Below are positions 1-58,425 of a stretch of DNA of 64,000 bases, one piece after another (positions within the stretch are counted from its first letter, which is position 1; each line of letters opens with the position of its first letter). This stretch comes from Nannocystis sp. SCPEA4 (GTDB lineage Bacteria > Myxococcota_A > Polyangia > Nannocystales > Nannocystaceae). The position numbers and the translations under genes were made by a program. The notes beneath the pieces were generated by a model. That model was not told where the DNA came from. It did no database searches and saw only the letters and a program-made list of their open reading frames with translations. Where the stretch lies: positions 233,329 through 297,328 of the forward strand of contig NZ_JAPNJX010000021.1 of assembly GCF_026626685.1 (NCBI RefSeq), given 5' to 3'.

Positions 1-942
1 CCGCGGCCGCGGAGCGCGGCCCAGCTCGCGGACGTGCTGTGGTCGGCGCTGTCGCTGCTGCCCGGCCACGGGCACGAGGTGCTCGGCAGCTTCGTCGCCG
101 ACGACGTCGCCGCTCGCGCGCGCGTCGGCGGGTTGCGGGTCGAGGCGACCACGCTGCGCAGGTTGTCGCGGCTCGAGTTGCGCGGCGCCCGGCTCGACGT
201 CGACCTCGACTTCTTTCACGACGGCGGTCCCGACCTGACCCATGAGCCAGCCGGTGTCGCCGCCGAGCTGGCCGCCGCCGGCCTGCTCGACGACCCGCCG
301 GCGATGACCCATTCGATCGCCAGCGGCTTCATGCCCGAGCGCCTGCGGCCGCTCGGCGCCCGGCTGGCCGCGGCGATGGGCTTCGCGTTCGCCCCCTCGA
401 CCCCGCGGCCGCAGCAGGCCGCGCGCAGCCTCGCCGTCGTCGCTCGCGCCGCGCCGGCGTCGCACGCCGAGCTCGCCGAGCTCACCGCGAGCGAGCTGGA
501 CCCTCTGGGCGGCCCCGGAATGGCCCTGCGCGCCGTGTTGTGCGCCCGCGCCGATCGGCTGGGCGAGGCGGCGGAGGCCCACGCCGAGGCGCGCAGGCTC
601 GGCGACCGCGCGACCTGGCCGGCCTACGAGCTCGGCCTTCGCCACCTCGCGCGGCGCGAGCCGGGCGCGGCGGCCGAGTGGTTCGCTCGCGCCGAGGGCG
701 ACCTCGTCGACACCATGCAGGCCCACAGCCTCTCCCTGCGCGCCCTCGCCGAGTGCCGGCGTGGCGACTTCGCGGCCGGCCTGGCCGCCGCGCTGCGCTG
801 CCTCGAGCGGATCCCGCTGCGGGCCGAGCCGTACCAGCTCGCCAGCATCGCCGCGGCCCGCCTCGGCCGCGCCCACGAGCTCGACGAGGTCCGCGCGCGG
901 CTCGAGCGATTGCAGGCGACACGAAAGGACGCAGGACTGTGA
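1..942 (+). CDS. TPR-like hypothetical protein, probably 5'-partial. The frame is open from nt 1; the first in-frame start is GTG at 34.
   Basis: ORF track 34..942. No stop lies upstream in this frame. The C-terminal half has TPR-like helical repeats. The stop TGA (940-942) overlaps the GTG (939) of the next gene. Confidence 0.5.
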   Translation, partial: PRPRSAAQLADVLWSALSLLPGHGHEVLGSFVADDVAARARVGGLRVEATTLRRLSRLELRGARLDVDLDFFHDGGPDLTHEPAGVAAELAAAGLLDDPPAMTHSIASGFMPERLRPLGARLAAAMGFAFAPSTPRPQQAARSLAVVARAAPASHAELAELTASELDPLGGPGMALRAVLCARADRLGEAAEAHAEARRLGDRATWPAYELGLRHLARREPGAAAEWFARAEGDLVDTMQAHSLSLRALAECRRGDFAAGLAAALRCLERIPLRAEPYQLASIAAARLGRAHELDEVRARLERLQATRKDAGL

Positions 943-3068
943 GCACCTGGCTGCCCGACGAATTCTTCGCCACGCACTGGCGCCGCCGCCCGCTGTTGAT
1001 CCGCGGCGGCGCCTCGCGCCTGCTCACGCCCGGCGTCACGGAGGACGAGCTCGACGACGCCATCGCGCGGCTGTCCCGGCTCGACCCCGACCGCGTCAAG
1101 CGCTCGGGCGACGACGTCGTGTTCGCCCAGCGCATCGACGCCGTGGTGCCGCGGCTGCGGGTGCTCGCCCAGCGGCTCGTGCCCCTGTTCGGCAGCGCGA
1201 ACGTCGGCTTCGACGGCTCGACGATGCGGGACGGGCACAGCATCGGCAGCCACTACGATTACAGCGACAACTTCATCCTCCAGCAGTCCGGCGCCAAGCT
1301 GTGGCGACTTCACCCGCCCGACATCATCCCGCGCGATCAGCAGCGCCTGCGCATGCTGAAGCACCCGGAGCTCGGCCCGGTGCCCATGCCCGCGGGCGCG
1401 ATCGAGTACACGCTCGAGCCGGGCGATCTGCTGTACATCCCGATCTTCTGGCCGCACTGGGGGCTGTCGCGCGGCCCGTCGACGAGCGTCTCGCTGCTCG
1501 TCGACGCCGAGTCGGCGCACGGCGAGATCGTGCCGACGCTCGCGGCCCTGCTCTCGGAGGACGAGCGGTTCTGGTCGCCGCTGCCCGCGGTCCCCGTCGA
1601 TCTCGCGTCCGCCGAGGCGGCGCTGCCGGACGCGCTCGCCCAGGTCCTGTCCGACCTCGGCGAGGCCCTGCGCGACCCCACGGTCGCGCGCACGCTGGCG
1701 CGGCGGTGGTGGCAGGCGCGGGTCGCCCGCTTGCGGCAGGCCGCCGGCGTCGCTCCGCCGCGCGACGCCTCGTCCGCGGACGCGCTGCCGATCGACATGG
1801 CCCGCGTGCGGACGCTGCTGCAGGCCCCGCTGCCGCCGCTCGACCCGAGCCGGCTCGCGCTCCCCGAGCCCGACGGTGCGGCCCACCGGTTGCTGCGCGA
1901 CTACGCCTGGCGCCCCTACCTCAAGCGCCTGCTCGTCCTCTGCAGCCGCGCACACGCGAAGCTGCACGACGAGGCCCACCGGCGCTCGCTGGCCACTTTG
2001 GTCGTCGGCGTGCAGCGGCTCGCCCCCGACGTCCTGCGCGACCTCCTGCTCCGGCCCGAGCTCACCTCCTGGATCTGGCGCATGGCCGAGGCGCTCGAGT
2101 TCGCCTTCCCGCCGCAGCTCGAGCTGCTCGTGCGTCACCTCGGCGTCGCGCTGCTGCCGGCGTTGTTCGTCCACGACGCGCTCCCCGCGGGCGAGCCCGT
2201 CTTGCTCGCCCCCACCGATTCGACCGAGCTGCACCTGCTGTCGCTGACATGCGCGCTGCGGACCCGCGAGCCGCTGCCCGAGGTCGTCACCGCCGTGGCC
2301 GCGGGCGACGAGCTCCGCCTCGGCGAGGCGCTGGCGATCCCTCGCGCAGCGCTGCGTGAACCGGCCAGGGGCGACGGCTGGGAGGTCGTGCCGCTGGCGA
2401 CGGCGCCCGGCTCCCGCGTGCTCCTGCTGCGGACCAGCCGCTGGTACACCGAGTTCTTCCCGGCGCGCGAGGACGTCGAGGGCCGCGTCAGCCCGTTGTT
2501 CCTCGACATCGACGACGCCGCGCTGGCGGCGTGGCGGGCCGCGATGACCGAGGGCTTGCAGCGCGTCGGCCACCACTGGCCCGCCGCCCGCGCCGAGCTC
2601 GAGGACAGCGTCGCGGTCCTGCTGCCCGTACGCTCGCACGGCCTGCGCCCGCACAACGCCAGCGTCGCCGGCTTTCGCGGCCTCATCACCGCCAGCGCAC
2701 GCCCGGACTACATGACCGCGCAGACGCTCGTCCACGAGGCCGCGCACAACAAGCTCAGCACGCTGCTCGACGTCTACCCGGTCGTCACCAACCCCGACGA
2801 CGAGCTCCACCCCTCGCCCTTCGTCGCCATCCCGCGGCCGCTGACGGCGCTCGTCCACGGCGTGTACTCGTTCCTCCACGACATTCAGCTCACCCGCCGC
2901 ATGCTCGCGGCCGGCGTCCCCGCGCTCGCCGAGGCGCCGATGGATCGCTATCTGCGAAAGATCGAGGACCGGGTCGCCGCCGCGATGTCCACCCTGCGGC
3001 AGCACGCCCGCCTCACGCCCGCCGGAGAGGCCCTGCTCGCCGGCGTCGAACGGGCCCGCGAGACATGA
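939..3068 (+). CDS. Two-domain fusion: an N-terminal JmjC/cupin-4 Fe(II)/2-oxoglutarate oxygenase and a C-terminal HExxH-motif domain ('aKG-HExxH'-type putative peptide-modifying enzyme).
   Basis: Same frame as ORF 540..3068, but the start is taken as GTG 939 overlapping the upstream stop (GTGA). The N-terminus has 'THWRRRPLLIRGG' and 'HYDYSDNFILQQSGAKLWRL ... PHWG' (cupin His/Asp/His ligands). The C-terminus has 'LVHEAAHNKLS' (HExxH). The antisense ORF 624..3281 is rejected. Confidence 0.75.
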   Translation: MSTWLPDEFFATHWRRRPLLIRGGASRLLTPGVTEDELDDAIARLSRLDPDRVKRSGDDVVFAQRIDAVVPRLRVLAQRLVPLFGSANVGFDGSTMRDGHSIGSHYDYSDNFILQQSGAKLWRLHPPDIIPRDQQRLRMLKHPELGPVPMPAGAIEYTLEPGDLLYIPIFWPHWGLSRGPSTSVSLLVDAESAHGEIVPTLAALLSEDERFWSPLPAVPVDLASAEAALPDALAQVLSDLGEALRDPTVARTLARRWWQARVARLRQAAGVAPPRDASSADALPIDMARVRTLLQAPLPPLDPSRLALPEPDGAAHRLLRDYAWRPYLKRLLVLCSRAHAKLHDEAHRRSLATLVVGVQRLAPDVLRDLLLRPELTSWIWRMAEALEFAFPPQLELLVRHLGVALLPALFVHDALPAGEPVLLAPTDSTELHLLSLTCALRTREPLPEVVTAVAAGDELRLGEALAIPRAALREPARGDGWEVVPLATAPGSRVLLLRTSRWYTEFFPAREDVEGRVSPLFLDIDDAALAAWRAAMTEGLQRVGHHWPAARAELEDSVAVLLPVRSHGLRPHNASVAGFRGLITASARPDYMTAQTLVHEAAHNKLSTLLDVYPVVTNPDDELHPSPFVAIPRPLTALVHGVYSFLHDIQLTRRMLAAGVPALAEAPMDRYLRKIEDRVAAAMSTLRQHARLTPAGEALLAGVERARET

Positions 3069-4189
3069 GCGACGTCCGCCTCCACCGCAGCGTCCTGCTG
3101 GCCGTCGGCGCGGCCCCGCGGTGGTTCGGAGCGACATGCGAGCACCCCGGGCTGCTCGCCTGGTCCGAGCTCGCCGCTGCTGCCGAGGCGCTGCAGGTCG
3201 CGCTCGCCGCCACGCTCGGCCCGGAGGTCCTCGCCCACGAGCTCTCGCTCGAGTCGCGCGCGCGGCTCCGCGGCGACGCATGCGTCGCGCACACCGCTCT
3301 CGTGATCCGGCTCGTCGTCGCCGGGCCGCGCTCGCGGATCCCCGTCGTCTGGCACACCTGCGTCCCCGAGGCCGGCACCGACGCGCTGGCTCGCCAGCTC
3401 CACGCCACGCTCGCGGGCGACGCGATCGCCGGCGAAGTGCGCGCCGCCGTCGACGGCGTCCCGCTCGCCGAGGTCACGCGCTGCCCCGTGGTCCTCGATC
3501 CATGGCTCGCGTCCACGCTGGTGCACGAGTGCATCGGCCACAGCTCCGAGGCCGACAATTACGCCGCGTACATGGCCCCGGCGGGGATCCGGCTCGGGCA
3601 CCGCTGGACCGAGCTGCCGCTCCACGTGGTCGACGACCCGCGCCTCCCGGGTCGCGTCGGCGGCTATGACGTCGACGACGAGGCCGTCCCGGCGCGCGCC
3701 ACCCCGCTCGTGCGGGACGGCGTCTGGTGCGGCCTGCTGCACAGCCGCGCCAGCGCCCGGCAGCTCGGCGTCGACAGCTCCGGTCACGGTCGCCGGGTCG
3801 ACGACGCGCCCGCCATCCCGCGCATGGCCGTCACCTACGTCGAGCCCGGCGGGCAGTCGCCCGCGGCTCTGCTCGCGGACCAGGCCGACGCCATCTATTG
3901 CCGCGGCGTGATCGGCGGCGGCTCGGTCGGCCGCGAGTTCGTCCTCCGGCCCGCGTATGGCGTGCGGATCCGCCACGGCCGGCCGACCGGCGAGGTGCTG
4001 CGCCGCTTCGACCTCGTGGGTGACAAGCTCGCCACGCTCGCCCGGCTCGCCGGCATCGCCGACGACCTCACCTTCTTCGACTCCGCGCTCGGCTGTAACA
4101 AGGACGGCCAGAACAACCTGCCCGTCAGCCAGGGCGCTCCGCACCTCGCCCTGAGCGCCGCCTCGCTGCGCCCGATCGCCCGCCCTTGA
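3065..4189 (+). CDS. TldD/PmbA-family metallopeptidase (peptidase U62-like), short form.
   Basis: ATG 3065 overlaps the upstream stop (ATGA). It carries 'LVHECIGHSSE', an HExxxH motif like that of TldD, and 'GGGSVGREFVLRPAYGVRIRHGRPTGE', typical of the TldD/PmbA C-terminal domain. Confidence 0.7.
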   Translation: MSDVRLHRSVLLAVGAAPRWFGATCEHPGLLAWSELAAAAEALQVALAATLGPEVLAHELSLESRARLRGDACVAHTALVIRLVVAGPRSRIPVVWHTCVPEAGTDALARQLHATLAGDAIAGEVRAAVDGVPLAEVTRCPVVLDPWLASTLVHECIGHSSEADNYAAYMAPAGIRLGHRWTELPLHVVDDPRLPGRVGGYDVDDEAVPARATPLVRDGVWCGLLHSRASARQLGVDSSGHGRRVDDAPAIPRMAVTYVEPGGQSPAALLADQADAIYCRGVIGGGSVGREFVLRPAYGVRIRHGRPTGEVLRRFDLVGDKLATLARLAGIADDLTFFDSALGCNKDGQNNLPVSQGAPHLALSAASLRPIARP

Positions 4190-4782
4190 CAGCCTCGCTC
4201 GACCACGCCTCCATGTCCTCCATGTCCTTCGCGCCCGTCACCGTGCATCTCTCCGACGGTCGTCGCTGCACCCTCCGGGCCGCCGCCGAGGGCGACGACG
4301 CGGGCCTGTACGCGCTCGAGCAGGCCATCGTGCGCGCCCGCGACGGCGTCGTGAAGTACCCCGACGAGCTCCCGCCCGACCTCGCCGCGTACGCCGAGAA
4401 GCGCGCCAATTCCGGGGCCGCCTTCGCCCTCGTCGCCGCCCAGGACGACGGCGAATTGCTGGGCGAGGCGTCGCTGGTGCGCCTGCCGTTCCGCATGCTC
4501 CACCACGTCGCCGTCCTCGGCATGGGCGTCCATCCGCGCGCTCAGAGCCGCGGCCTCGGGCGCGCGCTGCTCACCCATCTCCTCGCCTGGGCCCGCGACC
4601 ACCGCGACCTCGACGGCGGCCGCGTCCTCCGCGTCGAGCTCTACACCCGCGCCGACAACCACCGCGCCCTCGCCCTGTACCACGCGCTCGGCTTCCGACT
4701 CGAGGGCACCCGCCGCGCGTTCGTCCTCCGCGACGACGGCGCGCTCGTCGACGACCACATGATGGCCCTGCTCTTCGCATGA
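4186..4782 (+). CDS. GNAT-family N-acetyltransferase.
   Basis: TTG 4186 overlaps the upstream stop. Alternative ATG starts are at 4213 and 4222. It has a GNAT motif, 'HHVAVLGMGVHPRAQSRGLGRALLTHLLAWAR'. Confidence 0.7.
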   Translation: MTASLDHASMSSMSFAPVTVHLSDGRRCTLRAAAEGDDAGLYALEQAIVRARDGVVKYPDELPPDLAAYAEKRANSGAAFALVAAQDDGELLGEASLVRLPFRMLHHVAVLGMGVHPRAQSRGLGRALLTHLLAWARDHRDLDGGRVLRVELYTRADNHRALALYHALGFRLEGTRRAFVLRDDGALVDDHMMALLFA

Positions 4783-5065
4783 GCGAAGCCCTCGCCGCGC
4801 GGCCGCGCCGGTCGAGATGACGATCGCCCGCGGCACGTCGGCGCCCTGGATGTCTCTTTCGCCATGTTTCCATGAACATGTCTGAATAGCCATGTCCAGG
4901 GGCGCGGGCACGACTCCGCGCGACCCCCCAGGGCGCGACCCCCGCGCGATTTCGCCCCGCCCGACCCCGCCAAACCTCGCCCAGGCCCGCGCGAGCGGCA
5001 ATTTTCGGCTCCCGCAATTTTTCGGCCGGCTGCGGCGACTCCAGGTCCGCACGGTGACGCCCATC

Positions 5066-5980
5066 ATGTACAGCACAGCGAACATCTCTTCGACGACGCG
5101 CGCGCGAGTCCTGGCCGGGCTGGCCTGCGCCGCGCTGTTCGTCCTGCCGGAGCGGCCCGCGGCGGCGCTCTCGTGCGATGGCCCGGCGTGGGAGGACGAG
5201 TGGGCGATGCCCGGCTCGCTGCGCAACTCGTTTGAAGAGTTCCCGCTCGACGCCCAGTTCTGGGAGCTGCGCAGCTGCGCGTACGACTTTGCCCCTCCCT
5301 CGGAATGCCGGCTGGAGCGCGGCGACGACGTCATCCCGGTCGCGGTCGAGGTCGACGGCGCGGAGCACTGCAACGTCGAGCCCTCGTACGTCGGCGGCGA
5401 CAATGACCCCGACGCGATCGTCCGCTACGTGCCCGAGCGCCCCCTCCTCCCCGAGCGCTCCTACGTGCTCGTGTGCGACGCCAACGGCCCCGCGCCCAAC
5501 GACGAGCAGGGCCAGTACACCTTCGTGCGCTCGCGCCTCGACCCCGCGCCGGCCGCGACGCCGGGCTCGCTGGACGACATCGGGCTCGAGTTCAAGCGCG
5601 GCGACGAGGGCTGCTGCGAGAGCGGCAGCTACCTCGACCTGCGGCTCGACCTCGAGCAGCCGTGGCTGCTCGAGGGCGGCTACGTCGAGGTGCTCTACGA
5701 CGACGGTCAGGTGTTCGCCGTCCGCGAGCCCGACAGAAATTGGTCGAGCGCGATCGAGATGCCGCCGACCGAGGGAGGCCTCGAGCTCACGCCGGTCGCC
5801 GCCGACGGCACCCGCGGCGAGACGCGCCGCTTCGACCGCGGCGACTACGACCGCGAGCTCATCTACACGCCCTGCGCCGTGACCGGCCACGCGTCGCCGC
5901 TGGCGCTGTGGCTGTTCGCGCCGCTGCTGTGGATCGGCACGCTCGGCCGCCGCCGTCGCGCCGCCGGAGGTGCGTCATGA
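5066..5980 (+). CDS. Secreted protein with a MYXO-CTERM-like C-terminal sorting tail.
   Basis: ATG 5066 sits in the frame of ORF 4892..5980. It has an N-terminal signal peptide. Its C-terminus reads 'TPCAVTGHASPLALWLFAPLLWIGTLGRRRRAAGG', which is Cys, then a hydrophobic stretch, then RRRR. Confidence 0.65.
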   Translation: MYSTANISSTTRARVLAGLACAALFVLPERPAAALSCDGPAWEDEWAMPGSLRNSFEEFPLDAQFWELRSCAYDFAPPSECRLERGDDVIPVAVEVDGAEHCNVEPSYVGGDNDPDAIVRYVPERPLLPERSYVLVCDANGPAPNDEQGQYTFVRSRLDPAPAATPGSLDDIGLEFKRGDEGCCESGSYLDLRLDLEQPWLLEGGYVEVLYDDGQVFAVREPDRNWSSAIEMPPTEGGLELTPVAADGTRGETRRFDRGDYDRELIYTPCAVTGHASPLALWLFAPLLWIGTLGRRRRAAGGAS

Positions 5981-6678
5981 TTTCCCATGTTCTTTTACAC
6001 ATGTCTCTTGCGACAAGTCTTTTCGGGCAGGCCCCGGCCGGCGACGCCGGCGTCGCCGTCCCGCCGCCCGCCGCGCCCGCTCCGGCAGCCGCTCCCGTCG
6101 CGCCCGCCCCTGCGGCCGCGGCCCCCGCGACGGCCCAGCTCGACGGGACCGCCGACCCCTCGCCAGCCCCGCAGCCCGCGCCCGCGCCCGCGTATGTCCA
6201 TCAGGACATGTCTGCTCCGCCAGCCTACCCTCCGGCGCCGGCGCCGGCGAACAAGTCGCGGTTCGTGTTCGCGTTCCTGCCGGGACCGACGTACGGGCTC
6301 CACTACTTCCCCTCCGCGAACCTGCCGTTCTTCTTCGGCGCCCGGCTGAAGCGCAGCCCGTGGGCGCTGGGCTTCCAGTTCACCGTGTCGACCGGCCTCG
6401 CCGAGCGCTACCTCTCCGGCCTCCTCACCCACCGCTATCACGTCACCGGCCTCACGAGCTTCGGCGCGCGCGGCCGCGGCTTCGCCAGCGTCGGCGGCGG
6501 CTTCGCGGTCCGCTTCTTCTCGCCCATGATCGAGGCCGAGGGCCGGGTCGGCCTCCGCTTCGGCTCGCGCCGCCGCGGCATCGTCGCCGGAATGGTCCGC
6601 CTCGGCTACGACTTCGCCCACCGCGAGGGCGCCCCGGTGCCGCAGGTCGGCGTCGTGGTCGGCATCTGCACCTTCTGA
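5977..6678 (+). CDS. Hypothetical Pro/Ala-rich protein with a β-strand-rich C-terminal domain ending in Phe (possibly outer-membrane). An alternative ATG is at 6001.
   Basis: ATG 5977 overlaps the upstream stop (ATGA). Its first ~14 codons are rare, AT-rich codons that coincide with a recurring DNA motif, so the true start may lie downstream. The C-terminal residue is Phe. Confidence 0.5.
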   Translation: MISHVLLHMSLATSLFGQAPAGDAGVAVPPPAAPAPAAAPVAPAPAAAAPATAQLDGTADPSPAPQPAPAPAYVHQDMSAPPAYPPAPAPANKSRFVFAFLPGPTYGLHYFPSANLPFFFGARLKRSPWALGFQFTVSTGLAERYLSGLLTHRYHVTGLTSFGARGRGFASVGGGFAVRFFSPMIEAEGRVGLRFGSRRRGIVAGMVRLGYDFAHREGAPVPQVGVVVGICTF

Positions 6679-6756
6679 AGCATCACCGACCGCCTCGCGC
6701 CATTCACGGCGTGTCACTCCTGACAGGGGGGCACGCGGCACGCCGAACATGCGCCC

Positions 6757-7899
6757 TCACTTCGCCTGCAGCTCGCGCAGCCGCGCCTCGAGCATCTCCT
6801 TCGCCTGCGGGTCCGTCGCCTTCGCCACCTGCTTCTCGAGCAGCTTGACCTGCGCCACGCGCAGCGCGTCGTCGGCCGGCACCGCGACGTCGGGCTTCAC
6901 GCCGACGCCCTCCCAGTTCGTCTTCGAGATCGGGTTGATCGCGCGTCCGGTCGGCACGAACGCCGCGAAGTGGTCGCCGAGGCGGACCATGTCGCCGGGG
7001 TTGGCCCCGCCCCACGTCACCTCGCCGACGATGGTCGCGCGCTTGAGGTTCTGCAGGTTGTAGGCGAACTCCTCCGCCGCCGATCCAGTGTTCTTGCTGG
7101 TGAGCACGTAGATCTCGCGGCCGACGTACGCCTTGCCCGGCACCGGCGCCGTCCAGAACTGGCGCGTCGCATCGGCTGGCCGGAAGTACAGGTCGTTGAG
7201 GTGCACCGGCTCGTCGAAGAAGTAGCTGCAGAGATACGCCACCACCTCGGGCGCCCCGCCGCCGTTGCGGCGCAGGTCGATGATGAGCCCGTCGGTCTCC
7301 GCCAGGAAGTCCATCGCAGCGCTCGCCGCCGTGAAGCCGCGCCCCGGGAACTCGAACGACCGCACCTCGACGTAGCCGAGGTTGCCCGCCAGCCGCTCGA
7401 CCCGCTCGAACCCGCCGTTCACCTGGTTGGAGAACTCCTCGTAGCGCGCCAGATCCTCGGCCGACGGCGGCCCGGGCTGCCGCTGCGGCGGCAACGTCTC
7501 CTTGCTGAACCGCACGTGGAAGTGGGCGTCGAACAGCACCTCGTTGATATGAGCGGTCAGCGCCGTCGCCAGCGCGTGGCCCGTGGTGATGCCATTGTAT
7601 TCGCCGCGCTTCTTGCGGGCCCGGAGCGCGCGCGCCACCTCGGTCGCCTTCTTCGGGAACACGTACTTGTCCGTCAGTTCGCGGGCCAGCGCCTCGATCG
7701 CCTGGTCGCGCTCCGCCGCCGTGATCGGCCCGTCCGGCCCCTTCGGCGGCCGCGGCGGCGGCACGGCCCGCTTGGCTTCGCTGGTCTCGGCGGGCGCCGC
7801 TGCGGCCGGCTTGGCGGCCGCGACCGGCGCGCAGCCGAAAGCGTAAAGGGTGGATATCGTCAGCCAACCGATCAGGCACCTGTACAGTCGCATCACCAT
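6757..7899 (-). CDS. Peptidase S41 family lipoprotein (tail-specific/C-terminal processing protease-like).
   Basis: ORF 6757..8034, with the start placed at ATG 7899 just after a GGAG. It has the signal/lipobox 'ISTLYAFGC' and the S41 motif 'GLIIDLRRNGGG'. Confidence 0.8.
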   Translation of the reverse strand: MVMRLYRCLIGWLTISTLYAFGCAPVAAAKPAAAAPAETSEAKRAVPPPRPPKGPDGPITAAERDQAIEALARELTDKYVFPKKATEVARALRARKKRGEYNGITTGHALATALTAHINEVLFDAHFHVRFSKETLPPQRQPGPPSAEDLARYEEFSNQVNGGFERVERLAGNLGYVEVRSFEFPGRGFTAASAAMDFLAETDGLIIDLRRNGGGAPEVVAYLCSYFFDEPVHLNDLYFRPADATRQFWTAPVPGKAYVGREIYVLTSKNTGSAAEEFAYNLQNLKRATIVGEVTWGGANPGDMVRLGDHFAAFVPTGRAINPISKTNWEGVGVKPDVAVPADDALRVAQVKLLEKQVAKATDPQAKEMLEARLRELQAK

Positions 7900-7993
7900 C
7901 GTCTCCGAATCGTGGGACCCCGGCGCGGGCCCTGTCCTGTCATTCCTGTCTCTGGTCTCTGCGGCGAAACCCCGGCTCACTCCGACCGCCCCG

Positions 7994-8719
7994 TCACGGC
8001 TTCGGTTTCTTCCTCCGCGTCGCCCCTGCCTCACCCGGCCGGGCGCGCGCGCCTGCTTGCACCTTCGTCTGCTTCTTCGCCGCCGCCGCGCCCTTGACTC
8101 GCGGCTCCGACCCCGGCACCACCAGGCTCCTGAGCAGCAAGTCGGCCATGCGCCGGACCTCGACCTCGATCTGCCCCCGTTGCCCGAGCTCGTGCACGCT
8201 CAGGCTGTAGGGCAAGAAAGCATTGGTCGCCTTCACCAGCGTCGACGCCGTCGCCACCGCGTCGTCGAGCGCGAACCGCCCGCCCGCGCGGCCGGCCGCC
8301 AGCACCTTGGCCACCAGCGCCACCTCGCGCTCCATGTGGATCGTCCGGCGGGCCATGTACGCCGGACGCACCGCCTCGAACAGCTCGTCGAGGCTCGTGT
8401 GATAGGCGCTGACGCTGTCGAAGCGCCGCAGCACCCGCTCGACCAGCACCCGGTGCAGCACCGCCGCGACGTCGCCCGTCCCGCCCGCGAGCTCGACCAG
8501 GCGGGCGTACGTCTGCGCCACCACCCGGTCGATCGACGACAACCCCACCTCTTCCTTGCTCGGGAAGTACATGTAGATCGTCCGCCGGCTGACCCCCGCC
8601 TCGGAAGCGATGTCGTCCATCGTCACGCCGCGAAAGCCCCGCGTCGTCAACAGCCGATCGGTGGCGTCGAGGATGGCCTCGCGCGTCTCGCCGTTGCCTC
8701 GCCCCGAATTCACGAGCAC
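7994..8719 (-). CDS. TetR/AcrR-family transcriptional regulator.
   Basis: ORF 7994..8941 trimmed to GTG 8719, which sits just downstream of the palindromic operator. It has an N-terminal HTH, 'TREAILDATDRLLTTRGFRGVTMDDIASEAGVSRRTIYMYFPSKEE'. It sits upstream of, and in the same orientation as, the S41 peptidase. Confidence 0.75.
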   Translation of the reverse strand: MLVNSGRGNGETREAILDATDRLLTTRGFRGVTMDDIASEAGVSRRTIYMYFPSKEEVGLSSIDRVVAQTYARLVELAGGTGDVAAVLHRVLVERVLRRFDSVSAYHTSLDELFEAVRPAYMARRTIHMEREVALVAKVLAAGRAGGRFALDDAVATASTLVKATNAFLPYSLSVHELGQRGQIEVEVRRMADLLLRSLVVPGSEPRVKGAAAAKKQTKVQAGARARPGEAGATRRKKPKP

Positions 8720-8727
8720 ACCCGAGC

Positions 8728-8755
8728 CTTGCACAAAACCAGAACTTTGTGCAAG
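8728..8755. promoter_or_regulatory. Perfect 10-bp inverted repeat, CTTGCACAAA-N8-TTTGTGCAAG. It is a candidate TetR operator.
   Basis: Seen directly in the sequence, immediately 5' of the tetR start on the minus strand. Confidence 0.6.
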
Positions 8756-18047: not shown

Positions 18048-21000
18048 GTGGTACCTTGGGCGGCCCCGCTCGCGGCACCACGCCCCATGCCTGAAACTGC
18101 CGTCGCGCCCAAGCGCCAGCCCTCGCCTCACGATCTGCCTTGTCCGTTGCCGCCTGTGGCTCCTGGAGAGCCGCCGGAGCTGGCCGCGTTTCGAGCCAAG
18201 CCGAGCGACGACGCATTCTTGCGTCTGCGCCGGGCCTTCCGCGAGGCCGAGAACTGGAGCGGGCTCGCCACCTTGCTCGTCGTGCACGCCGCCGCGATCA
18301 CGGGTCCGCCGAAGGTCGGCGAGCTGTGCGTGCAGGCGTACGAGCTCTGGTACGACCGGGTCAAGGACAAGCCGCAGGCCGCCTACGCGCTCGTACGGGC
18401 GCTGCAGGCCGAGCCGCACAACCATCGCGCCTTCGAGCTGCTGCGCAAGGTCTACCAGGAGATCGGCGCGCTGGACGAGCTCGCCACCCTCCTCAAGTTC
18501 CGCCTCGATCATCTGCGTCGGAACGATCGTGGGGCTGTGCCGGCCGCCCTGGTCGAGCTCGGCAAGGTCGACGAGCAGCGCTGTCAGGTCGACGAGGCGA
18601 TCGCTTGCTACAGGGCCGCGCTCGACATCAACCATGGCGAGCGCGACGCCGCCGAGCAGCTGATCCGGCTGCACCTTCAGGCGGGCGCCTGGCTGCGGGT
18701 CATCGATCTGATCAACGCCGAGCTCGCGCGCACCGACGCGGTCCGCGAGCGCGAGCGGTTCGCCGCGCTGCACCTGCGGCTGGCGCGGATCGAGGCCGAG
18801 CAGCTCGAGAACATCCCCTCGGCCGCGCTCCACCTGCAGGCCGCGCTCAAGGCCAACCCTGACGACGTCGCCGCCTTGCGGGCGTTCGGCGCCCTCTACC
18901 TCGGCAGCGGCAAGGCCAGCGACGAGGGCCTGCAGAAGGCCGCCGACGTGTTCTTTCGGGCAGCCAAGCTCGCGCGCAGCCAGGGCGACGACAAGATCGC
19001 CTACAACCTCCTGCGCCGGGCCATGAGCCTGCGCCCCGATCACCACGAGGCCGGCAACGCGCTGGCCGAGCTGTTGATGGCGCAGGAGAAGTGGATGGAG
19101 CTCGACGACCTCTACGGCGCCTGGATCGGCTACGTCACCGAGGCCGACAGCTACGGCCTGTGGCTGTCGCGCGGCGAGCTGCTCGAGACCCGCCTCGCCC
19201 GCCGCGAGGAGGCGCGCGCCTGCTACGAGCAGGCCTCGCGGCTCGAGCGACCCGGCGGCGACGCCTGGCTGCGGCTCGAGGCCCTGCTCGTCGAGCTCGG
19301 CGACAACCACGCCCTCGTCGGCCTGTACGAGCGCTGGTCGGAGCAGGACCCGAGCAGCTTGTCGACCGACAAGCTGCTGTGGGCCGCCCGCGTCGCCCGC
19401 GAGGACCTCGGCGACGAGGAGCGGGCCGCCGTCGCCTTCTACCGCGTGCTCGAGCGCGAGCCCTTCAACCACGAGGCGTTCGAGGGCTACAAGGAGCACT
19501 GGCGGCGCAAGAACAACTGGTCGCACCTCGCCGGCCTCATCCTCTACCAGGTCGACCAGGCGCTGCAGATGGGCGGCGGCCCCGACAGCCCGCTCGCGCG
19601 CAGCGAGTTCGCCGAGCACTTCGTCGAGCTGGCCGAGATCTACGAGCGCCGCCTCGGCGACCTCGCCGGCGCCCTCGACGCGTGGAACCGGCTCGCGCTG
19701 GCCTACCCCAACGACTGGCGCCCGCGCGACCAGATCGCCCGCATCGACAAGCGCGCGCGCATGCTCGACGCCAACCTCGCCACCCTCGAGGCCGAGCTGC
19801 AGCGCACCGTCGATCCGCAGCGGCGCTTCGAGGTGCTGCGGCGGCTGTCGCAGGCCCACCGCGAGCGCATGACCGACCCGCAGCGCACCATCGTCCTGCT
19901 GCAGGAGATGCTGGCGCTGGCGCCCGGCCACGAGGGGGCCCTGCGGGCGCTCGCGGAGATGTACGAACGGACAGGTGCTTACGACCAGGTCATCGACCTG
20001 CTGCGGCGCCAGCACGACGTCACCCGCAGCATCTCGCAGCGGGTGGTCCTGCTGCGGCGCATGGCCGAGCTGTGGCAGCACGAGCTGCACAGCCCGCGCG
20101 AGGCGCTGTGGGCCTGCGAGCAGATCCTCGGCTACAGCCCGTCCGACCTCGACGCCGTCCACCGCATGCAGGGCCTGTCGTCCGAGCTCGGCGACGCCGG
20201 CGGCGAGTACGAGGCCCTCTCGCGCGAGCTGCAGCTGGTCGGCGAACCGGCCCAGCGCACCCGCATCATCCGGCGCATGGCCGACGTCGCCGACCGCAAG
20301 CTGCAAGATCCGCAGCGCTCGGCCCAGGCGTGGACGCAGCTGCAGGCCGCCGACCCGCACAACCTCGAGGTCACCGACAAGCTGATCGCCGCCTACGAGG
20401 CGCTCGGCAACCGCGAGGAGCTGGCCAACCTGCTCGGCAAGGCCGCCAGTTCGGCGCGCACCCCCGCGATCCGCCAGCTCGACTACCTCATGCGCCTGGG
20501 CCACGTCGCCGAGGCCTCGCTCGGCGACGCCGACCTGGCCTGCTCGGCCTTCGAGCGCGCGCTGCGGATCCACCGCGACCACCGCGGCGCCACCGAGGCG
20601 CTGACCCGCCTCTACCGCAACCTCGGCAGCTGGCACGGCCTCGCCGCCTCGCTCGGCACCCTGCAGGAGATGGCCGACAGCGACGAGGAGGCGCTCGGCA
20701 TCGGCTGGGAGCGCGCCGAGATCCTGGCCGACCGCCTCGACAACCCGGCGGCCGCCATCCGCGTGCTCGAGCAGCTCGCCTCGACCTCCGCCGTCGGCCA
20801 CCGCGACGTCGCCCTCAAGCTGCTCGAGCTGTACGAGCGCGCCGGCCAGTACGACCGCCTGATCCGCCAGGCCGAGGTGCTGCTGCTGTCCGCGCTCGAG
20901 ACCGACGAGCGGCGCGAGCTGTTCTCGCTGATCGCCCGCAACTACGTCGTCAACCTCAACCAGCCGCAGAAGGCCATCGCCGCGTTCCAGCGGTTCATGC

Positions 21001-24000
21001 GCGAGGAGCCCGACGACAGCGAGGGCCTCAAGGTCCTCGGCGAGCTGCAGACCATGGCCGGGGACCACCAGGCCACCCTCGACACGCTCGCCAAGCGGCT
21101 CGAGAGCCTCACCGACGCCGCCCAGCAGGTCGTCACTCTCGAGCAGATGGCCGAGGTGTGCGAGTACGGGCTCGGCCACGCCAAGCGGGCGCTCGCGCTG
21201 CTCGGGCGGGCTCTCGGCATCGCCCCCGGCAGCCGCGACCTCAAGACCAAGATCGAGGCGTTCGCCGAGCGCCACGGCATGTACAAGGACCTGCTCGTCG
21301 TCTACGGCGAGCGCTTCACCGAGATGAGCGGCCGGGCCGAGAGCCGCGGCCAGATCGACCTCTGCCTCGGCGCCTCGGCCACCGCCGAGAAGAAGATCGG
21401 CGACGCCGACCTCGCGTTCGCCTGGGCGCGCAAGGCCTACTTCGTGGCCCTGCGCGCCGGCCTCGACGCCGGCCCCGTGCTCGACCGCCTCGAGGGCCTG
21501 GCCCAGGCCCACGGCCTGTGGCCGCAGATGCTCGAGGTCAGCGAGCAGGAGCTCGCCTTCCAGGAGAAGACCCCCAACTACGGCGACTTCGGCACCATCG
21601 CCCTCCTGATGTCCGCCGCCGAGATCGCCCGCGAGCGCCTCGGCGACCCCGCGCGCTCGATCGGCTACCTGCAGCGCGCCTACAAGCTGCGCCCCGACGA
21701 CGAGGATCTCGGGCGCCAGATCGAGGCCCTCGCCGAGGCGCACAAGATGTGGCAGGCGCTGATCGACCTGCACGAGGCCCGGCTCGCCCGCGCCAAGACC
21801 GGCCTCGGCCGCTTCGACCCCTGCACCGCGATCGCCAAGATCTACGAGCGCCACCTCGACGATCCCAGGCGCGCCTTCCAGTGGTTGCGCCGGGCCGAGA
21901 ACGATTTGCGGCCCGCCGATCCGTCGCTCGCCGAGGAGGCCGCCGGCCTGATGACCGAGCTGGCCCAGCGCCATCAATTGTGGCCCGAGCTCGCCGATCA
22001 CCACCGCGGCCTCGCGCTCGCCAAGCTGCAGCGGAGCGAGCGCGGCGGTCTCAATCAGCTCAAGGACTCGGCCCGCATCGACTACGAGAAGCGCCAGGAT
22101 CCGCTGGCCGCCCTGCGGACCCTGCGGCTCGGCGTCGCCTACGACCGCGACGGCGCTGCGCTGATGCCCGCGATCGAGGCGATGGCCGCCAAGGTCGACG
22201 AGAACCGCAGCCCCGACACCCCGCCGACCGGCGCCCTGACCCTGCTGTCGGTCACCCAGCAGATCATCGGCCAGACCGTCGACCCCGCGCTCAAGCTGCA
22301 GCTGCTCAAACGGCGCGCCGAGCTGCGCGCCGGCCTCGGCGACACCGCCGGCGCCATCGCCGAGTGGCTGCGCGCCCTCTCGCTCCACCCCGGCAGCGAG
22401 GAGGCCCGCTTCGAGCTCGACCGCCTGGCCGAGCGCGACAACCTGTGGCACCTCCTCCTGCTCGCGCCCGCCGCCGAGCTGCACTTCGGGACAGGCAAGG
22501 CCCAGCAGGGCAAGCTCCTGACCCAGATCGCCGAGCTCTACGAGAACTGCCTCGGCCGGCCCGAGTACGCCCTGCGGGCCCGGATCGCCGCGTGGAAGCT
22601 GCACGGCGACCTGCCGCCGGAGAAGGGCGAGCTCGGCCCGACCCACGCCAAGATGTGGCACCTCGCCGGCCTGACCGGCACCTACCTCACCCCGCAGCCG
22701 GTGCGCGACCCGCTGTTGTGGCCGCAGATCGCCCCGCCCGAGCTGGCCGACCGCGACCAGTGGCGCAAGCTCGGCCTCGACCCCGACACCCTCGCCCCGC
22801 GGATCGCCAAGAAGGTGCGGAGCAAGGAAGAGTCGAGCGTCGTCGAGCTCGACGACATCGAGGAGGTCTCGCGCCCGACCACCGAGATCCTCCTGTCCGA
22901 GCTCGAGCCGCTCGGCGATTTCCGCCGCGGCGGCGCCGAGGTCGTCGCCCGCCCGGGCAAGGGCGTCGCCTCCGACACGCACACCAACATCGTCGACATC
23001 GCCGAGCTCGAGCCGATCGAGGCCTCGGTGGCCACCACGACCAAGATCCGGCCCGCGCGGCCGGCCCGCGGCGAGACCGACATCGTCGACATCGCCGAGC
23101 TCGAGCCGGTCGAGGCCTCCGTCTCGGTCAGCGTGCGCGCGGCCGGATTGGCGCGCCAGGACAGCGGCGTGTTCGACCTCGCCGACCTCGAGCCGATCGA
23201 GGACAGCCTGGTCGGTCCGGCGCCGAAGCGCCCGGGCGGCGAGACCTCGGGCGTGCTCGACCTCGACGAGATGCTCGAGCTCGACGACGACGTCCCGCGG
23301 CCCACCTCGGCCAAGCCGTCGCTGCCGCGCCCGGCCGCCAAGCCGCTCAAGACGGCCCCGCCGCGCCCGCCCGGCGGCAAGCCGGTCGCCAAGGCCCCGC
23401 CGCCGACGCGCCGGCCCGCCGCCCCGCCGCCGCCGTCGCGCCCGCCGGCCGCGCCCGAACCTGTCCCTGCGGCCAGCTTGCCGCCCCCGCCCCCGGTCGC
23501 CAGCCGCGAGCTGATCGACGCCGTCACCGCCGGCCTGCCGCCGCTGCCCGAGCTCGACGCCCCGGTCCTGCCGGCCCGCCCCTCGGCCAGCTCCGCCTGG
23601 CACGAGCTGGCCCACGCCTACGCCTCGGTGGTCCCCGCCAGCAAGTCCGAGCGCGCCGGCCTCCAGCGCCTGCTCGCCCGCCTGTGGGACGAGGGCGCCG
23701 GCATGCCCGAGGCCGCGATCGAGCGCCTCGAGGAGGCCCTCGCGCTCGTGCCCGACGACCAGACCGCGCTCGCCGGCCTCGTCGACCTGTCCGAAAAGGC
23801 AGGTGACCCCGAGCGCCTGATCGCCGCGCTCTCGCGCCTGCTCGGCGACCTCACCCTGCCCGAGCACATCGTCGCCTATCACCTGCGCCTCGCCGACCTG
23901 TACGAACAGACAGGTCAGCCCGAGCGCGCCGAGGAGCAGTACCGCGGCGTGCTCGCGGTGTCGGCGAAGCACCTGCCGGCGCTGCGCAGCCTGGCCGCGC

Positions 24001-27000
24001 TGCACGCCAAGACCGGCCGCGAGCGCGAGGCCGCCGAGGCGTCGGCGCGTCTCTACGACGCCGAGGCCGACGGCCTCACGCTCGAGGAGCGGATCCCCCG
24101 TGTCCTCCAGCTCGCGCGCGACCTCGCCTACCGCGCCGACCGCTCGCTCGAGGCCATCCGCCGCCTCGACGCGCTGGTCAAGGAGACCCCCGAGACCGCC
24201 GACGTCCACGCCGAGCTGATCGAGATCCTCCAGCGCGAGGGCCTGTGGGTCCGCGCGGTCGAGGCCCTGCGCTGGGCCGCCGAGGTCGTGCCCAACCCCG
24301 ACGCGCGCGTGCGCTGCCTGGCCCGCGCCGCCCTCCTCACCGAGGAGCGCCTCGGCCAGATCGACGCCGCGATCGCCACCTGGTCCGAAGTGCTGGTCCT
24401 CCACCCCGATGACCCCGACGCGCTGGCCCGCCTGCAGAACCTCTACCTGCGCAGCGAGCAGTACGCCAAGCTGCTGCCGGTCCTCGACCGCCGCCTGGCC
24501 CAGGTCGCCCCCGGCGACCGCGACGCCCGGATCGCCCTGCTCGTCGTCAAGGCCCGCGCCCTGCAAGAGGGCCAGGGCGACGAGATCGCCGCGCTCGAGA
24601 CCCTCGAGACCCTCGCCGCCGAGGCGCCCGAGAACGACGACGTCGTGCTCGGCCTGTCCCGCCTCTACCGCAAGGGCGGCCGGCTCGACGACGGCATCGA
24701 GATGCTGCGCCGCCGCCTGGCCGAGATCATGAGCGACATGGAGGCGCGCCTCGAGCCGGTCGAGGACGAGCCGCTGCCGTTCGACATCCCCGAGCCGGTC
24801 TCGCCGGCGCTGGCGGCCCGCCGCCTGCGCGTCGCCGAGGCGCTGGCGACCGCCCTGGCCGAAGAGGCAGGCGACCCGCGCGGCGCGCTCGAGACCCTCG
24901 ACGAGGCGCTCGCCGCCGCCCCGCCGGAGGCCGCCCTCGGCCTGCAGCAGCGCCGCGTCGCCCTCGCCCGCGCCCTCGGCGACGACCGCGTGCTCGCCGT
25001 CAGCCTCGCCGCCGTCGGCGAGCCCGACGGCATCCTCGAGGCCGCCGCGATCGCCCGCGACCGCCTGCGCGAGCCCGAACTGGCGGCCCAGCTGTTCACC
25101 CGCGTGCTGTCCGAGCTGGCCCCCGGCGCCCCGCAGCGCAGCCGTCGGCTGTCGCAGGCGATCGAGGGCCTGGTCGGCCTGCGCCTGGCCGCCGGCGACC
25201 TCGACGGCGCCGACGCCCTGCTCGACGCCCAGCTGGCCCAGATCGACGACCCCGAGATCCGCGCCCGGATCCTCACCGAGAGCGGCCGCGCCCTGCTGCG
25301 CGGCGGCCAGGACTTCGCCCGCGCCCGCCGCCGCTTCGAGGCCGCCCTCGCCGTCGACCCCGACCACGCGCCCGCGCGCCTGGCCCTCGGCTCCGCGCTG
25401 ATCGACGCCGGTCTGCACGCCGAGGCCGAGGCCGCGCTCGAGGCCGCGGTCGAGGCGTTCGGCCTCACCCGCGATCAGCCACGCCTGGTCGAGGGCCTCC
25501 TGCTGCTCGCGCACCTGTTCGAACGGACAGATCGCGCAAACGAGGCCTATCGCCGGCTGTCGATGGCCCTGCGCCACGTCCCCGACGACCTCGAGATCCG
25601 CGCCGCCATGGCCCACAACCGCGCCGCCGCCGGCCGCCACCGCGACGCCGTCGCCGCGCTCGAGCCGGTCGAGCAGCGCCTGGCCGCCGGCACGCCGATC
25701 CCGGCCGAGCGCGCCCCCGTGGTCGCCGACCTGCTGATCCTCGCCGCCGAGTGCGACGCCAAGCAGAACGCCCCCGCCGAGCGGCTCGCCGCCCGCTACG
25801 CCCGCGCGCTCGAGCTGGCGCCGCGCCACCGCAAGGCCCGCGCGGCCCTGGCCCAGCTGGCCCAAGAGTCGGGCAGACTGGTCGATGCGGCCGAGCACAC
25901 CCTCGCCCTCGCCGACCTCGAGACCGACCCCGAGGCGCGCGGCCGGGCCCTGCTCGGCGCCGGCATGCTGTTCCACGAGGCGGCCGGCGCCGCCGCCGAG
26001 GCCGGCGAGGAGACGGTGGCCAGCAGCTCGGCGCAGAAGATCCTCGCGGCCGCCTTCGAGGCCGTGCAGGCCGGCCTGGCGCTGATCCAGGACATCCCGC
26101 ACCCGGTCGTCGAGCGCCGCCAGCTCGAGGCCGCCTTCTGGACCGCCGTCCCGCGCAACGCCGCCATCGCCCTCGGCTGCCTCGACCGCCTGCTGCACCA
26201 CCCCGACCTGCGCGAGGCCAAGCGCGCCGCCTTCCTGCTCGAGGGCGTGCGGATCGCCCTCCAGCGCGGCGAGCCCGGCGACCCGGCGCGCGCCCTCGGC
26301 TACGCCCGCGCCGCCGCCCTGCTCCTGCCCGACGCCGCCGGCCCGATCCACGCCCTCGTGGACGCGCTACGCGCCGCCGGGAACGACGACGAGATCGAGC
26401 CGGCCGTGCGCGCCTTCCTCGGCCGCGAGGCCCTGCAGCAGCCGCCTGGCGACCTCCGCGAGGCCCGCGATCGCCAGCGCCTCCTGGTCTGGCTGTCCGA
26501 CCTGGTCCTCCAGGCCGACCCGCCGGCTGACCCTGCGGACAGCCGCCCCGCCCAGGCCATCCGCCTGCTCGAGCGGGCCGCCGAGCTCGACCCGGCCGGC
26601 CTCGGTCTGGTCCCGCGGCGCCAGCTGGCCAGGCTTTACGCCGACGCCAAGATCCAGGGCCCGCAGGTGCGCAGCAACTCCGACGCGCTGCTGCACCTCG
26701 ACCCGCTCGACGAGGCCAGCCTGGCCGCCCTCGCCCGCCACTGCGCCGAGACCGGCGAGCGCGACCGCGCCCACGCGATCCATCAGTTGCTGCGGATCGT
26801 CAGTCCCGGCCACGCCGAGGCTGGCGCCTTCCTGTCGAGCAACGAGCTGGTGTCGGTGCGCAGCGGCAAGCTCGATCCGGCGACGGTGCTCGACGCGGCC
26901 CCGGCCGACGCCGGCGTCGTTCCGGCCATGACCGCGCTGTGGGAGGGCGCCGCGGAGCTGCTGGCGGAGGAGCTGCCGCGCCCGCAGTTCAGCGAGGCCG

Positions 27001-29937: not shown

Positions 29938-29999
29938 GCGCGCGACCGAAGACGCGGGGCTGTGGAGGCGCCCGAAGACGCGGGACGGTGGAGATCTGG

Positions 30000-31500
<1,501 letters not shown>

Positions 31501-31943
31501 TTCGCGGACGATGGCGCCTGCGCGCGCTCGCCTGCGGCCCCTCCCGCCTGCGTCCCACTCCGCCGCTCCGTGCCCGCCTGCGGAGAGCGTCGCCGGCCCC
31601 GCTTGTCGCCGTGCGAGAGGCTCAGCGAGCGGCGGCGACTGCGACGCGACCGACTGCGGTCCGCTCGCGGCTCCGGCCCGGGTGCGGCGTTCAACATGAG
31701 TCTTGAGTAATGTCTCATAGGACAGGTCTTTTTCGGCATGTCATCAAAGCCAGGCCGGCCCGCTGTCCTCGGACGACGTATCGTTGCCCTGGCACCAGCC
31801 GGACCCGCAGCTTTTCCGGAGCTCGCGCGGGTCACACTCGTCTCGCGCCTACCCGTGAAGGCTGGCTCCCCGACCCGGTCTTCGCGGGACCCTGTGACCG
31901 ACGAGCGTGTCTTCGCGCCGGTCGATCTGTCCCTGGGGACAGA

Positions 31944-55513: not shown

Positions 55514-55516
55514 GGG

Positions 55517-58370: not shown

Positions 58371-58425
58371 TAAGACATGCCCTGGCGGACATGTTCTTGC
58401 GAGCATGTCGTCACGGACATGCTCG
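58371..58425. promoter_or_regulatory. Four tandem GACATG-core repeats with 14-15 bp spacing in the ~715-bp leader upstream of vgrG.
   Basis: gACATGccctggcgGACATGttcttgcgagCATGTCgtcacgGACATGctc. It is related to motifs at 4848, 5999 and 63053. Confidence 0.45.

Follow-up and report, generated by a model that had tools for sequence, protein, structure and literature searches.

A high-copy palindromic repeat with a 14-bp phase in the extragenic DNA of Nannocystis

We analyzed a 64,000-nucleotide stretch of the Nannocystis sp. SCPEA4 genome (contig NZ_JAPNJX010000021.1, positions 233,329 to 297,328; hereafter the window), which has a G+C content of 71.6% and in which an initial annotation had recorded five AT-rich islands as closely related. 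All five quoted strings were recovered where that annotation had placed them, and the islands are members or decayed members of one family of palindromic repeats. The suggestion that they form a small dispersed repeat was borne out, since the element is a high-copy extragenic repeat found throughout the genus. With moderate confidence, we interpret the islands as Nannocystis-specific, high-copy repeats that resemble the repetitive extragenic palindromic (REP) sequences and bacterial interspersed mosaic elements (BIMEs) of other bacteria, in particular REP doublets forming hairpins (REPINs), and that mark the 3' ends of genes.

The repeat unit and its abundance in the window and the genus

The repeat unit is a 14-bp palindrome with the consensus AAGGACATGTCCTT, as read from a unit logo built on 92 Nannocystis loci (830 kb). 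Its conserved part is a 10-bp palindromic core, GGACATGTCC, which recurs every 14 bp; the units follow each other head-to-tail in strict 14-bp register, with two to six and usually two units per array. The motif first proposed, 'CCATGTTCT...CTCTT(G/T)CG', did capture a recurring feature, but what is conserved in it is the core, whereas the 'CTCTTGCG' tail is mostly variable spacer. The unit flanks show only a weak A/T preference and no conserved 5' tetranucleotide of the GTAG type.

Scanning the window for the idealized pair GACATGTC-N6-GACATGTC with up to three mismatches yielded 11 matches compared to 0.20 expected, a number equalled by none of 100 dinucleotide-preserving shuffles; the recurrence is therefore real and far beyond chance. 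Distances between CATG words in the window showed isolated peaks at 14, 28 and 42 bp. The word TGTCTCTT was found three times on the plus strand and not on the minus strand, and the palindromic unit itself has no strand bias. Beyond the five islands, the initial list had missed in-phase arrays at 6190-6213, 15702-15883 and 31692-31743. Tandem Repeats Finder, run at a score of 30, did not report the window arrays, whose copies are too diverged, and no Rfam family matched within the window at gathering thresholds.

The same 14-bp peak appeared in unrelated regions of four other Nannocystis genomes, reached via orthologues of the MYXO-CTERM protein encoded in the window, where the typical form is GGACATGTCC-N4-GGACATGTCC, and the signal was also present in two further unbiased Nannocystis loci. 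Across the 92 loci, 345, 142, 97 and 48 CATG-CATG pairs were counted at distances of 14, 28, 42 and 56 bp over a background of about 10. In 148 kb of Nannocystis DNA, GACATGTC occurred 27 times (about 0.9 expected from base composition) and was the top over-represented 8-mer outside the G+C-rich words of the codon-usage kind. No 14-bp periodicity was detected in a 21.7-kb metagenome contig of equal G+C content used as outgroup (68%-identical orthologue). When 185,579 species genomes were scanned for the perfect pair, at least 120 stretches were found, and 87 of the 120 matches listed came from Nannocystis or Nannocystaceae; among 2.9 million viral contigs, five hits were found, roughly the chance level by our estimate. 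In unbiased DNA, the array density was about 200-220 per Mb, an upper bound in view of the permissive unit threshold, and extrapolation to genomes of 11-13 Mb gives an estimate of at most a few thousand arrays per Nannocystis genome. The searchable literature on this word, on REPs in myxobacteria and on Nannocystis palindromes yielded no description of the repeat.

Some other identifications were tried and rejected. The repeat shares TGTCTCTT and TACACAT with the Tn5/Nextera mosaic end, but their order and the genomic context are wrong for contamination. A miniature inverted-repeat transposable element (MITE) does not fit either, as the copies have only the 10-bp core in common, with unrelated spacers and flanks. 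Once the 14-bp palindromic phase had been recognized, neither a shared 'MSL' mini open reading frame (ORF; ATGTCTCTT) nor CsrA-type GGA sites were needed as an explanation.

Position at gene ends, conservation and hairpin formation

We determined array positions relative to genes in two samples: a large one, consisting of loci selected for one perfect pair and annotated with our own crude gene calls based on third-codon-position G+C content (GC3), and six unbiased loci with deposited gene calls. Overall, arrays were 10-40 times denser outside genes than within. In the large sample, convergent gaps contained 3.31 arrays of at least two units per kb, whereas tandem gaps contained 0.7-0.9, divergent gaps 0.56 and coding DNA 0.13. 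After removal of the ascertained gaps, 43% of the convergent gaps still held an array, compared to 14-16% of the other gap types. Arrays in tandem gaps lay at a median of 38 nt past the upstream stop codon and 260 nt ahead of the next start; across both samples, these medians were 38-51 nt and 255-260 nt. The six unbiased loci showed the same trend less sharply, with 0.06 arrays per kb in coding DNA and 0.8-2.5 per kb in gaps. Here, distances to stop codons clustered at 0-40 nt, and no array lay 0-90 nt before a start, except two whose annotated start is the ATG of a repeat core. The proposed enrichment relative to start codons was therefore not observed in the sampled loci: arrays cluster after stops, not before starts. 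The window agrees with this picture. Instead of preceding or overlapping gene starts, as had been described, each site lies downstream of a stop codon, one of them (array D) in a convergent gap.

In orthologous gaps of three species, arrays persisted with conserved cores, whereas their spacers could not be aligned and unit numbers differed. Examples are a divergent gap at an extracytoplasmic function (ECF) sigma factor gene, the gap that precedes a serpin gene, and the 3' flanks of a Ser/Thr kinase gene, an FAD-oxidase gene and the gene following the MYXO-CTERM gene. Some arrays contain consecutive units that are identical including the spacer (GGACATGTCCTCAC twice in locus L017, GACATGTCTATCAA twice in L015), which points to array growth by slippage. 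A higher-order repeat around the element was seen in N. punicea upstream of the MYXO-CTERM gene (L002, 9190-9650), where each of four tandem copies of about 145-151 bp holds a ACATGTCTCCAAGGACATATC unit pair (9191, 9342, 9486 and 9630).

The unit equals its reverse complement; each pair of neighbouring units is therefore also an inverted repeat and can pair. Adjacent units fold on either strand into a 10-12-bp hairpin with a tetraloop, and the consensus doublet forms a 12-bp stem of -19 kcal/mol. For intergenic arrays, the median folding z-score against shuffled sequences was -4.3, and 85% scored below -2. Complementarity between the facing halves of neighbouring units exceeded the expectation under independence (e.g., 139 vs 125, 124 vs 110 and 105 vs 90; p = 0.004-0.01), with an odds ratio of about 2 and, summed over six positions, 696 observed and 633 expected complementary pairs. 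Palindromy within single units was depleted, and the flanks and spacers of neighbouring units were, overall, no more identical as direct repeats than expected. The 274 arrays comprised 189 with two units, 38 with three, 33 with four, 10 with five and four with six; this bias towards even numbers, with nearly as many four-unit as three-unit arrays, suggests that the doublet is the module. In the published description of REPINs (PMC3116915), REP doublets likewise form hairpins, favour certain next-neighbour distances and have conserved cores, with spacers that are less conserved.

In the reading that we favour, the arrays would form strand-symmetric hairpins where transcription units end and may there stop, pause or stabilize transcripts. 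In line with this, hairpin-plus-T-run sites of the terminator type were not enriched in positions 1-20000 of the window (4 vs 4.6 in shuffled sequences). The core GGACATGTCC would be maintained by a putative sequence-specific factor, because core identity and not only pairing is kept, and arrays would grow as 14-bp units slip or are duplicated. If a DNA-binding protein does recognize the units, it would act at gene ends rather than as a promoter-proximal regulator of a particular regulon.

Several observations weigh against this interpretation. It is their position that suggests a role of the arrays in termination or stabilization, and the sharpest positional contrast comes from the large sample with its crude gene calls and pair-selected loci; in the six unbiased loci, the contrast between convergent and divergent gaps was weak (2.48 vs 1.49 per kb), the latter figure being inflated by one repeat-rich gap. 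Some arrays, kept across three species, occupy divergent promoter gaps at a distance of about 150 nt from either start, although no transcript end is expected at such positions. Furthermore, no T-tract follows the arrays, whose 8 downstream nt contain 1.35 T on average, and T content did not differ between upstream and downstream sides (Wilcoxon p = 0.17), so that they are not canonical intrinsic terminators. Covariation between paired positions is modest (per-position p = 0.004-0.06). With the flanks GA....TC fixed, the central tetramer is CATG or one substitution away from it and not an arbitrary complementary pair, and isolated single units are likewise enriched in intergenic DNA (21 vs 1.4 expected). 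These last two features point to sequence-specific recognition instead of pure structure.

Arrays of the window and neighbouring features

The arrays of the window are listed in Table 1. Arrays A and C are clear, B and D are degenerate, and E and F are weak, with 1-nt indels in their cores and below the three-mismatch threshold. The five islands, first recorded as closely related, are unequal. Folding of B, D, E and F was not significant compared to shuffled sequences. Array A is conserved in N. radixulma, and two of its units remain in the N. punicea alignment; at the position orthologous to array C, a degenerate pair was found in N. bainbridge and none in N. punicea, which shows that arrays can be lost. 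The metallophosphoesterase encoded next to array C (58461-60122) shares 100% identity with the SCPEA4 protein.

Table 1 Repeat arrays and unit pairs in the window, with their composition, gene context, pair-scan hits (up to three mismatches) and predicted RNA folding
Site	Position	Units and cores	Gene context	Pair-scan hits	Folding
Array A	4846-4897	Four in-phase units; core tetramers at 4849 (GATG), 4863, 4877, 4891 (CATG)	66 nt past stop of GNAT gene (4782); 163 nt ahead of start of MYXO-CTERM gene (5066)	4861, 4875	Nested hairpin, -24.5 kcal/mol, z = -2.1
Array A flanks	4844-4902	CCCTGG/CCAGGG			Close the long nested hairpin
Array B	5983-6020	Three degenerate in-phase units, CCCATGTTCT, ACACATGTCT, CGACAAGTCT; cores at 5986, 6000, 6014 (CAAG)	Begins 5 nt past stop of MYXO-CTERM gene (5980)	5998 (2 mismatches)	No significant hairpin, z = -0.85
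In-gene unit pair	6190-6213	GTATGTCC ATCA GGACATGTCT	Pro/Ala-rich linker of gene 6001-6678		
Three in-phase unit groups	15702-15725, 15765-15788, 15846-15883		Either upstream of, or in the proline-rich 5' part of, a gene with a PAP2-annotated N. radixulma counterpart	Identified by pair scan	
Array D	31692-31743	Four degenerate in-phase units; cores CATG 31695, AATG 31709, CAGG 31723, CATG 31737	Convergent gap; 297 nt past stop of IS110-family transposase gene (31396), about 200 nt from stop of minus-strand gene 31944-32423	31707, 31721	Not significant
Array C	58373-58424	Four in-phase units; CATG at 58376, 58390, 58404, 58418	31 nt downstream of stop of minus-strand metallophosphoesterase gene (58461-60122); about 580 nt upstream of vgrG start (57796)		Minus-strand (transcribed) RNA: two adjacent hairpins, -34.2 kcal/mol, z = -5.6
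Site F	61277-61299	Diverged pair CATATGTCC-CGAA-GGACATTGT; indels in both cores	Begins about 15 nt past stop (61263) of gene 60439-61263		ATGTCC/GGACAT 6-bp hairpin retained; overall z about 0
Site E	63041-63061	One good unit (TGACATGTCT, 63052-63061) beside a degenerate partner with 1-nt insertion (CCATTGTTCT)	156 nt past stop of Kelch-like gene (62887)		No significant fold

Array B doubles as coding sequence: the following gene, which starts at 5977 or 6001 and extends to 6678, has its N-terminal signal peptide (MISHVLLHMSLATSLFGQ) encoded here. In an alignment of five species, third codon positions vary synonymously and N. bainbridge carries an in-frame insertion of 15 nt, from which we conclude that the conservation of this array is coding conservation; it can therefore not be used as evidence for a regulatory site. 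Array B is a decayed 14-bp-phased array that has been absorbed into a coding region.

The copies at 6190-6213 and 15702-15883 are retained in orthologues and belong to Pro/Ala-rich, probably disordered segments that are coding in the first case and possibly coding in the second, with the translations ..YVHQDMS.. and ..SGH(A/V)P(Q/A)DI.., respectively. Orthologous copies of the former pair were found in L001, L002 and L003, and an orthologous pair of the latter region lies at L001:20843. Either arrays were tolerated upon insertion into linkers, or the gene starts are mis-set; the annotated start of the N. radixulma PAP2 gene (L001:20860) is the ATG of a repeat core.

A similar false start concerns the MYXO-CTERM gene, whose product shares 95% identity with the orthologue from N. 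radixulma. An ORF opening at 4892, the ATG of a repeat core in array A, is over-extended: since the homologues comprise 302-305 amino acids, the alignment sets the start at 5066, and an exact-sequence look-up of the 362-aa ORF, with its wrong start, returned no match. Upstream of this gene, at 4998-5027, two direct repeats of the form GCAATTTT(T)CGG are nearly invariant in five Nannocystis species and are probably the real promoter or operator of the gene. The two copies read GGCAATTTTCGGC and CGCAATTTTTCGG, are followed by CTGCGGCGACTCCAGG and lie 20-70 nt upstream of 5066. Conservation extends to about 5047, and the remaining upstream region diverges across species. A similar word, CGCACAATTTTTTCGCC, is located on the minus strand upstream of vgrG (58308-58324), and GCAATTTTTCG with at most one mismatch occurs twice in the window (0.16 expected).

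Next to array D, the gene at 30425-31396 encodes an IS110-family transposase (Pfam DEDD_Tnp_IS110 and Transposase_20). IS110-family transposase genes adjoin arrays in two genomes, here and in L003 (11942-13165), and in N. exedens an IS110 element fills a gap where N. punicea and N. bainbridge have just an array. Elements of this family target REP sequences elsewhere. A blastn comparison of the IS110 region with all fetched loci revealed no second copy. To the left of the element, a 26-bp direct repeat (GCGACCGAAGACGCGGGACGGTGGAG, two copies, 29942-29993) directly follows the gene at 29074-29937, and the non-coding region upstream of the transposase gene contains an internal repeat of about 39 bp (30090-30128 and 30249-30287).

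Further features of the window were recorded alongside the arrays. An AT-rich palindrome at 8729-8768 (TTGCACAAA-N10-TTTGTGCAA, followed by a third TTGCACA) is likely a TetR operator; it lies at or immediately before the 5' end of a minus-strand TetR-family gene (7994-8869). The gene at 9781-10431 contains a 24-bp tandem repeat (10188-10338; 6.3 copies, 94% identity), which apparently encodes an 8-residue repeat, and a 65-bp tandem duplication lies just downstream of it (10646-10800). The region 18156-27713 encodes a 3,185-aa protein rich in TPR repeats, and in a minus-strand cluster at 51684-57796, the leading gene is vgrG (Phage_GPD, Gp5_C), while the large genes behind it may encode effectors.

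Alternative explanations and comparison with known systems

A possible, though doubtful, alternative is that an abundant sequence-specific protein binds the arrays as double-stranded DNA, for instance PadR-type winged-helix dimers lined up every 14 bp. Such a protein could be a nucleoid-associated factor, an insulator or a roadblock rather than a promoter regulator of the classical kind, and the hairpin potential would be a by-product of the palindromic half-sites. When phased at 14 bp, ACATGT forms ATGT-N8-ACAT, which is the canonical geometry of PadR operators (PMC3506622), and the perfect pair GACATGTC-N6-GACATGTC recurs near PadR-like gene starts in about ten actinobacterial loci. Core retention with variable spacers at orthologous sites, tetramers that stay CATG-like, the intergenic excess of single units and the conserved arrays in divergent promoter gaps are in line with protein binding as well. 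However, the preference for convergent gaps and stop codons, with most arrays at gene ends and none in the 90 nt before a start, is unlike a transcription-factor regulon, and cross-unit complementarity above independence is not predicted by independent binding of half-sites. Three PadR queries identified no PadR-like gene by tblastn in the 830 kb sampled, a weak negative for genomes of about 12 Mb, and none was seen among the scanned window proteins or adjoining arrays in the sampled DNA, which is similarly weak. In addition, a PadR protein would not usually have as many sites as the few thousand arrays that we estimate per genome.

In the actinobacterial loci (L026, L029, L038, L043, L056, L058, L067, L080, L100 and L103), the PadR-like gene starts 10-50 nt from a single perfect TGACATGTCA-N4-(T)GACATGTCA site, and several of these loci have a carotenoid-cleavage oxygenase (RPE65) gene as divergent partner. 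Pfam assigned PadR and Vir_act_alpha_C to three of these proteins and RPE65 to one neighbour, and the site looks like a conserved, putative PadR autoregulatory operator. Other matches outside Nannocystis include a perfect double core (GACATGTCAGTATAGACATGTCA) in Pseudomonas (L040 6975, L062 7197 and L095 703), just upstream of a large regulator gene conserved in the three genomes, whose product looks like a sigma-54-dependent, AcoR-like activator. In L041 and L070 (Lautropia) and L077 (Planctomycetaceae), the matched pair is surrounded by clusters of CGACATGTCGA-like and ATCGACAT-like words, which may represent separate local repeat or iteron families.

We regard it as rather unlikely that the arrays are the cis-element of a genus-specific system in which a sequence-specific binder, PadR-like or other, polymerizes in 14-bp register on GGACATGTCC at transcription-unit ends. 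If this were the case, the polymerizing binder would provide a roadblock terminator, an insulator or a site of supercoil management, and the array a dedicated gene-end mark, in a genome of 12-13 Mb and 72% G+C that would lack canonical intrinsic terminators. To our knowledge, no dedicated, sequence-defined mark of this kind has been described for bacteria.

Neutral 14-bp minisatellites, arising from a palindromic seed that expands by slippage and is purged from genes and promoters, would account for the identical consecutive units in L017 and L015, for unit numbers that vary between species at one gap and for the lack of array C in N. punicea. We nevertheless consider functionless repeats of this type quite improbable: neighbouring units are overall no more identical as direct repeats than expected, one core is found at many hundreds of independent loci in species whose orthologous proteins are 62-85% identical, and purging alone does not explain the bias towards stop codons.

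The initial annotation had also proposed a site for a shared regulator or sigma factor, that is, a promoter element or operator at the starts of unrelated genes. The islands are indeed AT-rich and intergenic, some precede ORF starts if the longest ORFs are used (e.g., 4892), and a minority of arrays lies in divergent promoter gaps. Yet the unit is a perfect palindrome without polarity or an asymmetry of the -35/-10 type, and arrays sit beside stops, keep a distance of 90 nt or more from starts and reach their highest density in convergent gaps. Moreover, the 4892 start is wrong, with homologues beginning at 5066, and the upstream motif conserved in five species is a different one, namely the GCAATTTT(T)CGG repeats described above. 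A promoter role of the family is thus very unlikely; a sigma-54 promoter was rejected in particular, as GG-N10-GC spacing is present at site C only.

A tag resembling DNA uptake sequences, as in Neisseria and Pasteurellaceae, with inverted pairs doubling as terminators, would be compatible with the genus-restricted over-representation, with pairs forming hairpins after genes and with the enriched single units. It is highly improbable all the same. With 27 copies in 148 kb, the exact 8-mer is found roughly every 5.5 kb, while known uptake sequences occur about once per kb; coding sequences strongly exclude the repeat, strict 14-bp phasing up to six units is not a known feature of uptake sequences, and we know of no uptake-sequence-dependent competence in Nannocystis. 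Finally, although sites E and F are individually weak, the 11 pair matches, the excess of GACATGTC, the CATG periodicity and the taxon-restricted scan leave a negligible probability that the islands resemble each other by chance.

The arrays, which occupy about 40% of convergent gaps, represent a major and apparently undescribed feature of genome organization in a genus explored for natural products. They also affect annotation, since gene callers take the ATG within CATG cores as false starts (4892; L001:20860). Furthermore, they are candidate native terminator or insulator parts for myxobacterial engineering, where such parts are scarce, and possible typing or variable-number tandem repeat (VNTR) markers, and they offer a system for studying how a palindrome resembling a PadR operator becomes a REP-like genomic repeat.

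Comparing the repeat to known systems, it shares with the DNA uptake sequences of Neisseria (DUS) and the uptake signal sequences of Haemophilus (USS) a genus-specific, over-represented word and inverted pairs behind genes, but it is sparser, nearly excluded from genes and strictly tandem-phased. Like intrinsic terminators, the arrays provide a stable, G+C-containing stem-loop 0-40 nt past stop codons that is usable from both strands in convergent gaps. Unlike these, they have no U-tract and no polarity, and one stem sequence is used genome-wide and serially in up to six units, whereas ordinary terminators have arbitrary stems. With PadR operators (ATGT-N8-10-ACAT), the repeat has the half-site and spacing in common, and the double core stands singly beside PadR genes in Actinomycetota; in contrast, the Nannocystis sites number up to an estimated few thousand, are mostly found at gene ends, are multimerized in phase and carry GG/CC flanks (GGACATGTCC) instead of the actinobacterial T/A (TGACATGTCA).

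The closest likeness, drawn here from repeat sequence, position, copy number and folding, is to the REP, BIME and REPIN elements of E. coli, Pseudomonas and other bacteria, which are short palindromes of high copy number, lineage-specific and extragenic, located behind genes or between convergent genes. As in REPINs, doublets and larger clusters occur with a preferred neighbour distance, conserved cores and hairpins in single-stranded DNA or mRNA. Unlike REPs, the Nannocystis unit measures 14 bp and is a perfect palindrome, so that tandem and inverted arrangement are the same; it has no 5' GTAG-type tetranucleotide, a subset lies in divergent promoter gaps, and neighbours are 14 bp apart compared to 71 and 110 bp for the REPs of P. 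fluorescens. While REP-like repeats are known as a kind, what is new here is a lineage-specific member with an unusual architecture that combines a 14-bp perfect palindrome, strict tandem phase and the geometry of a PadR operator.

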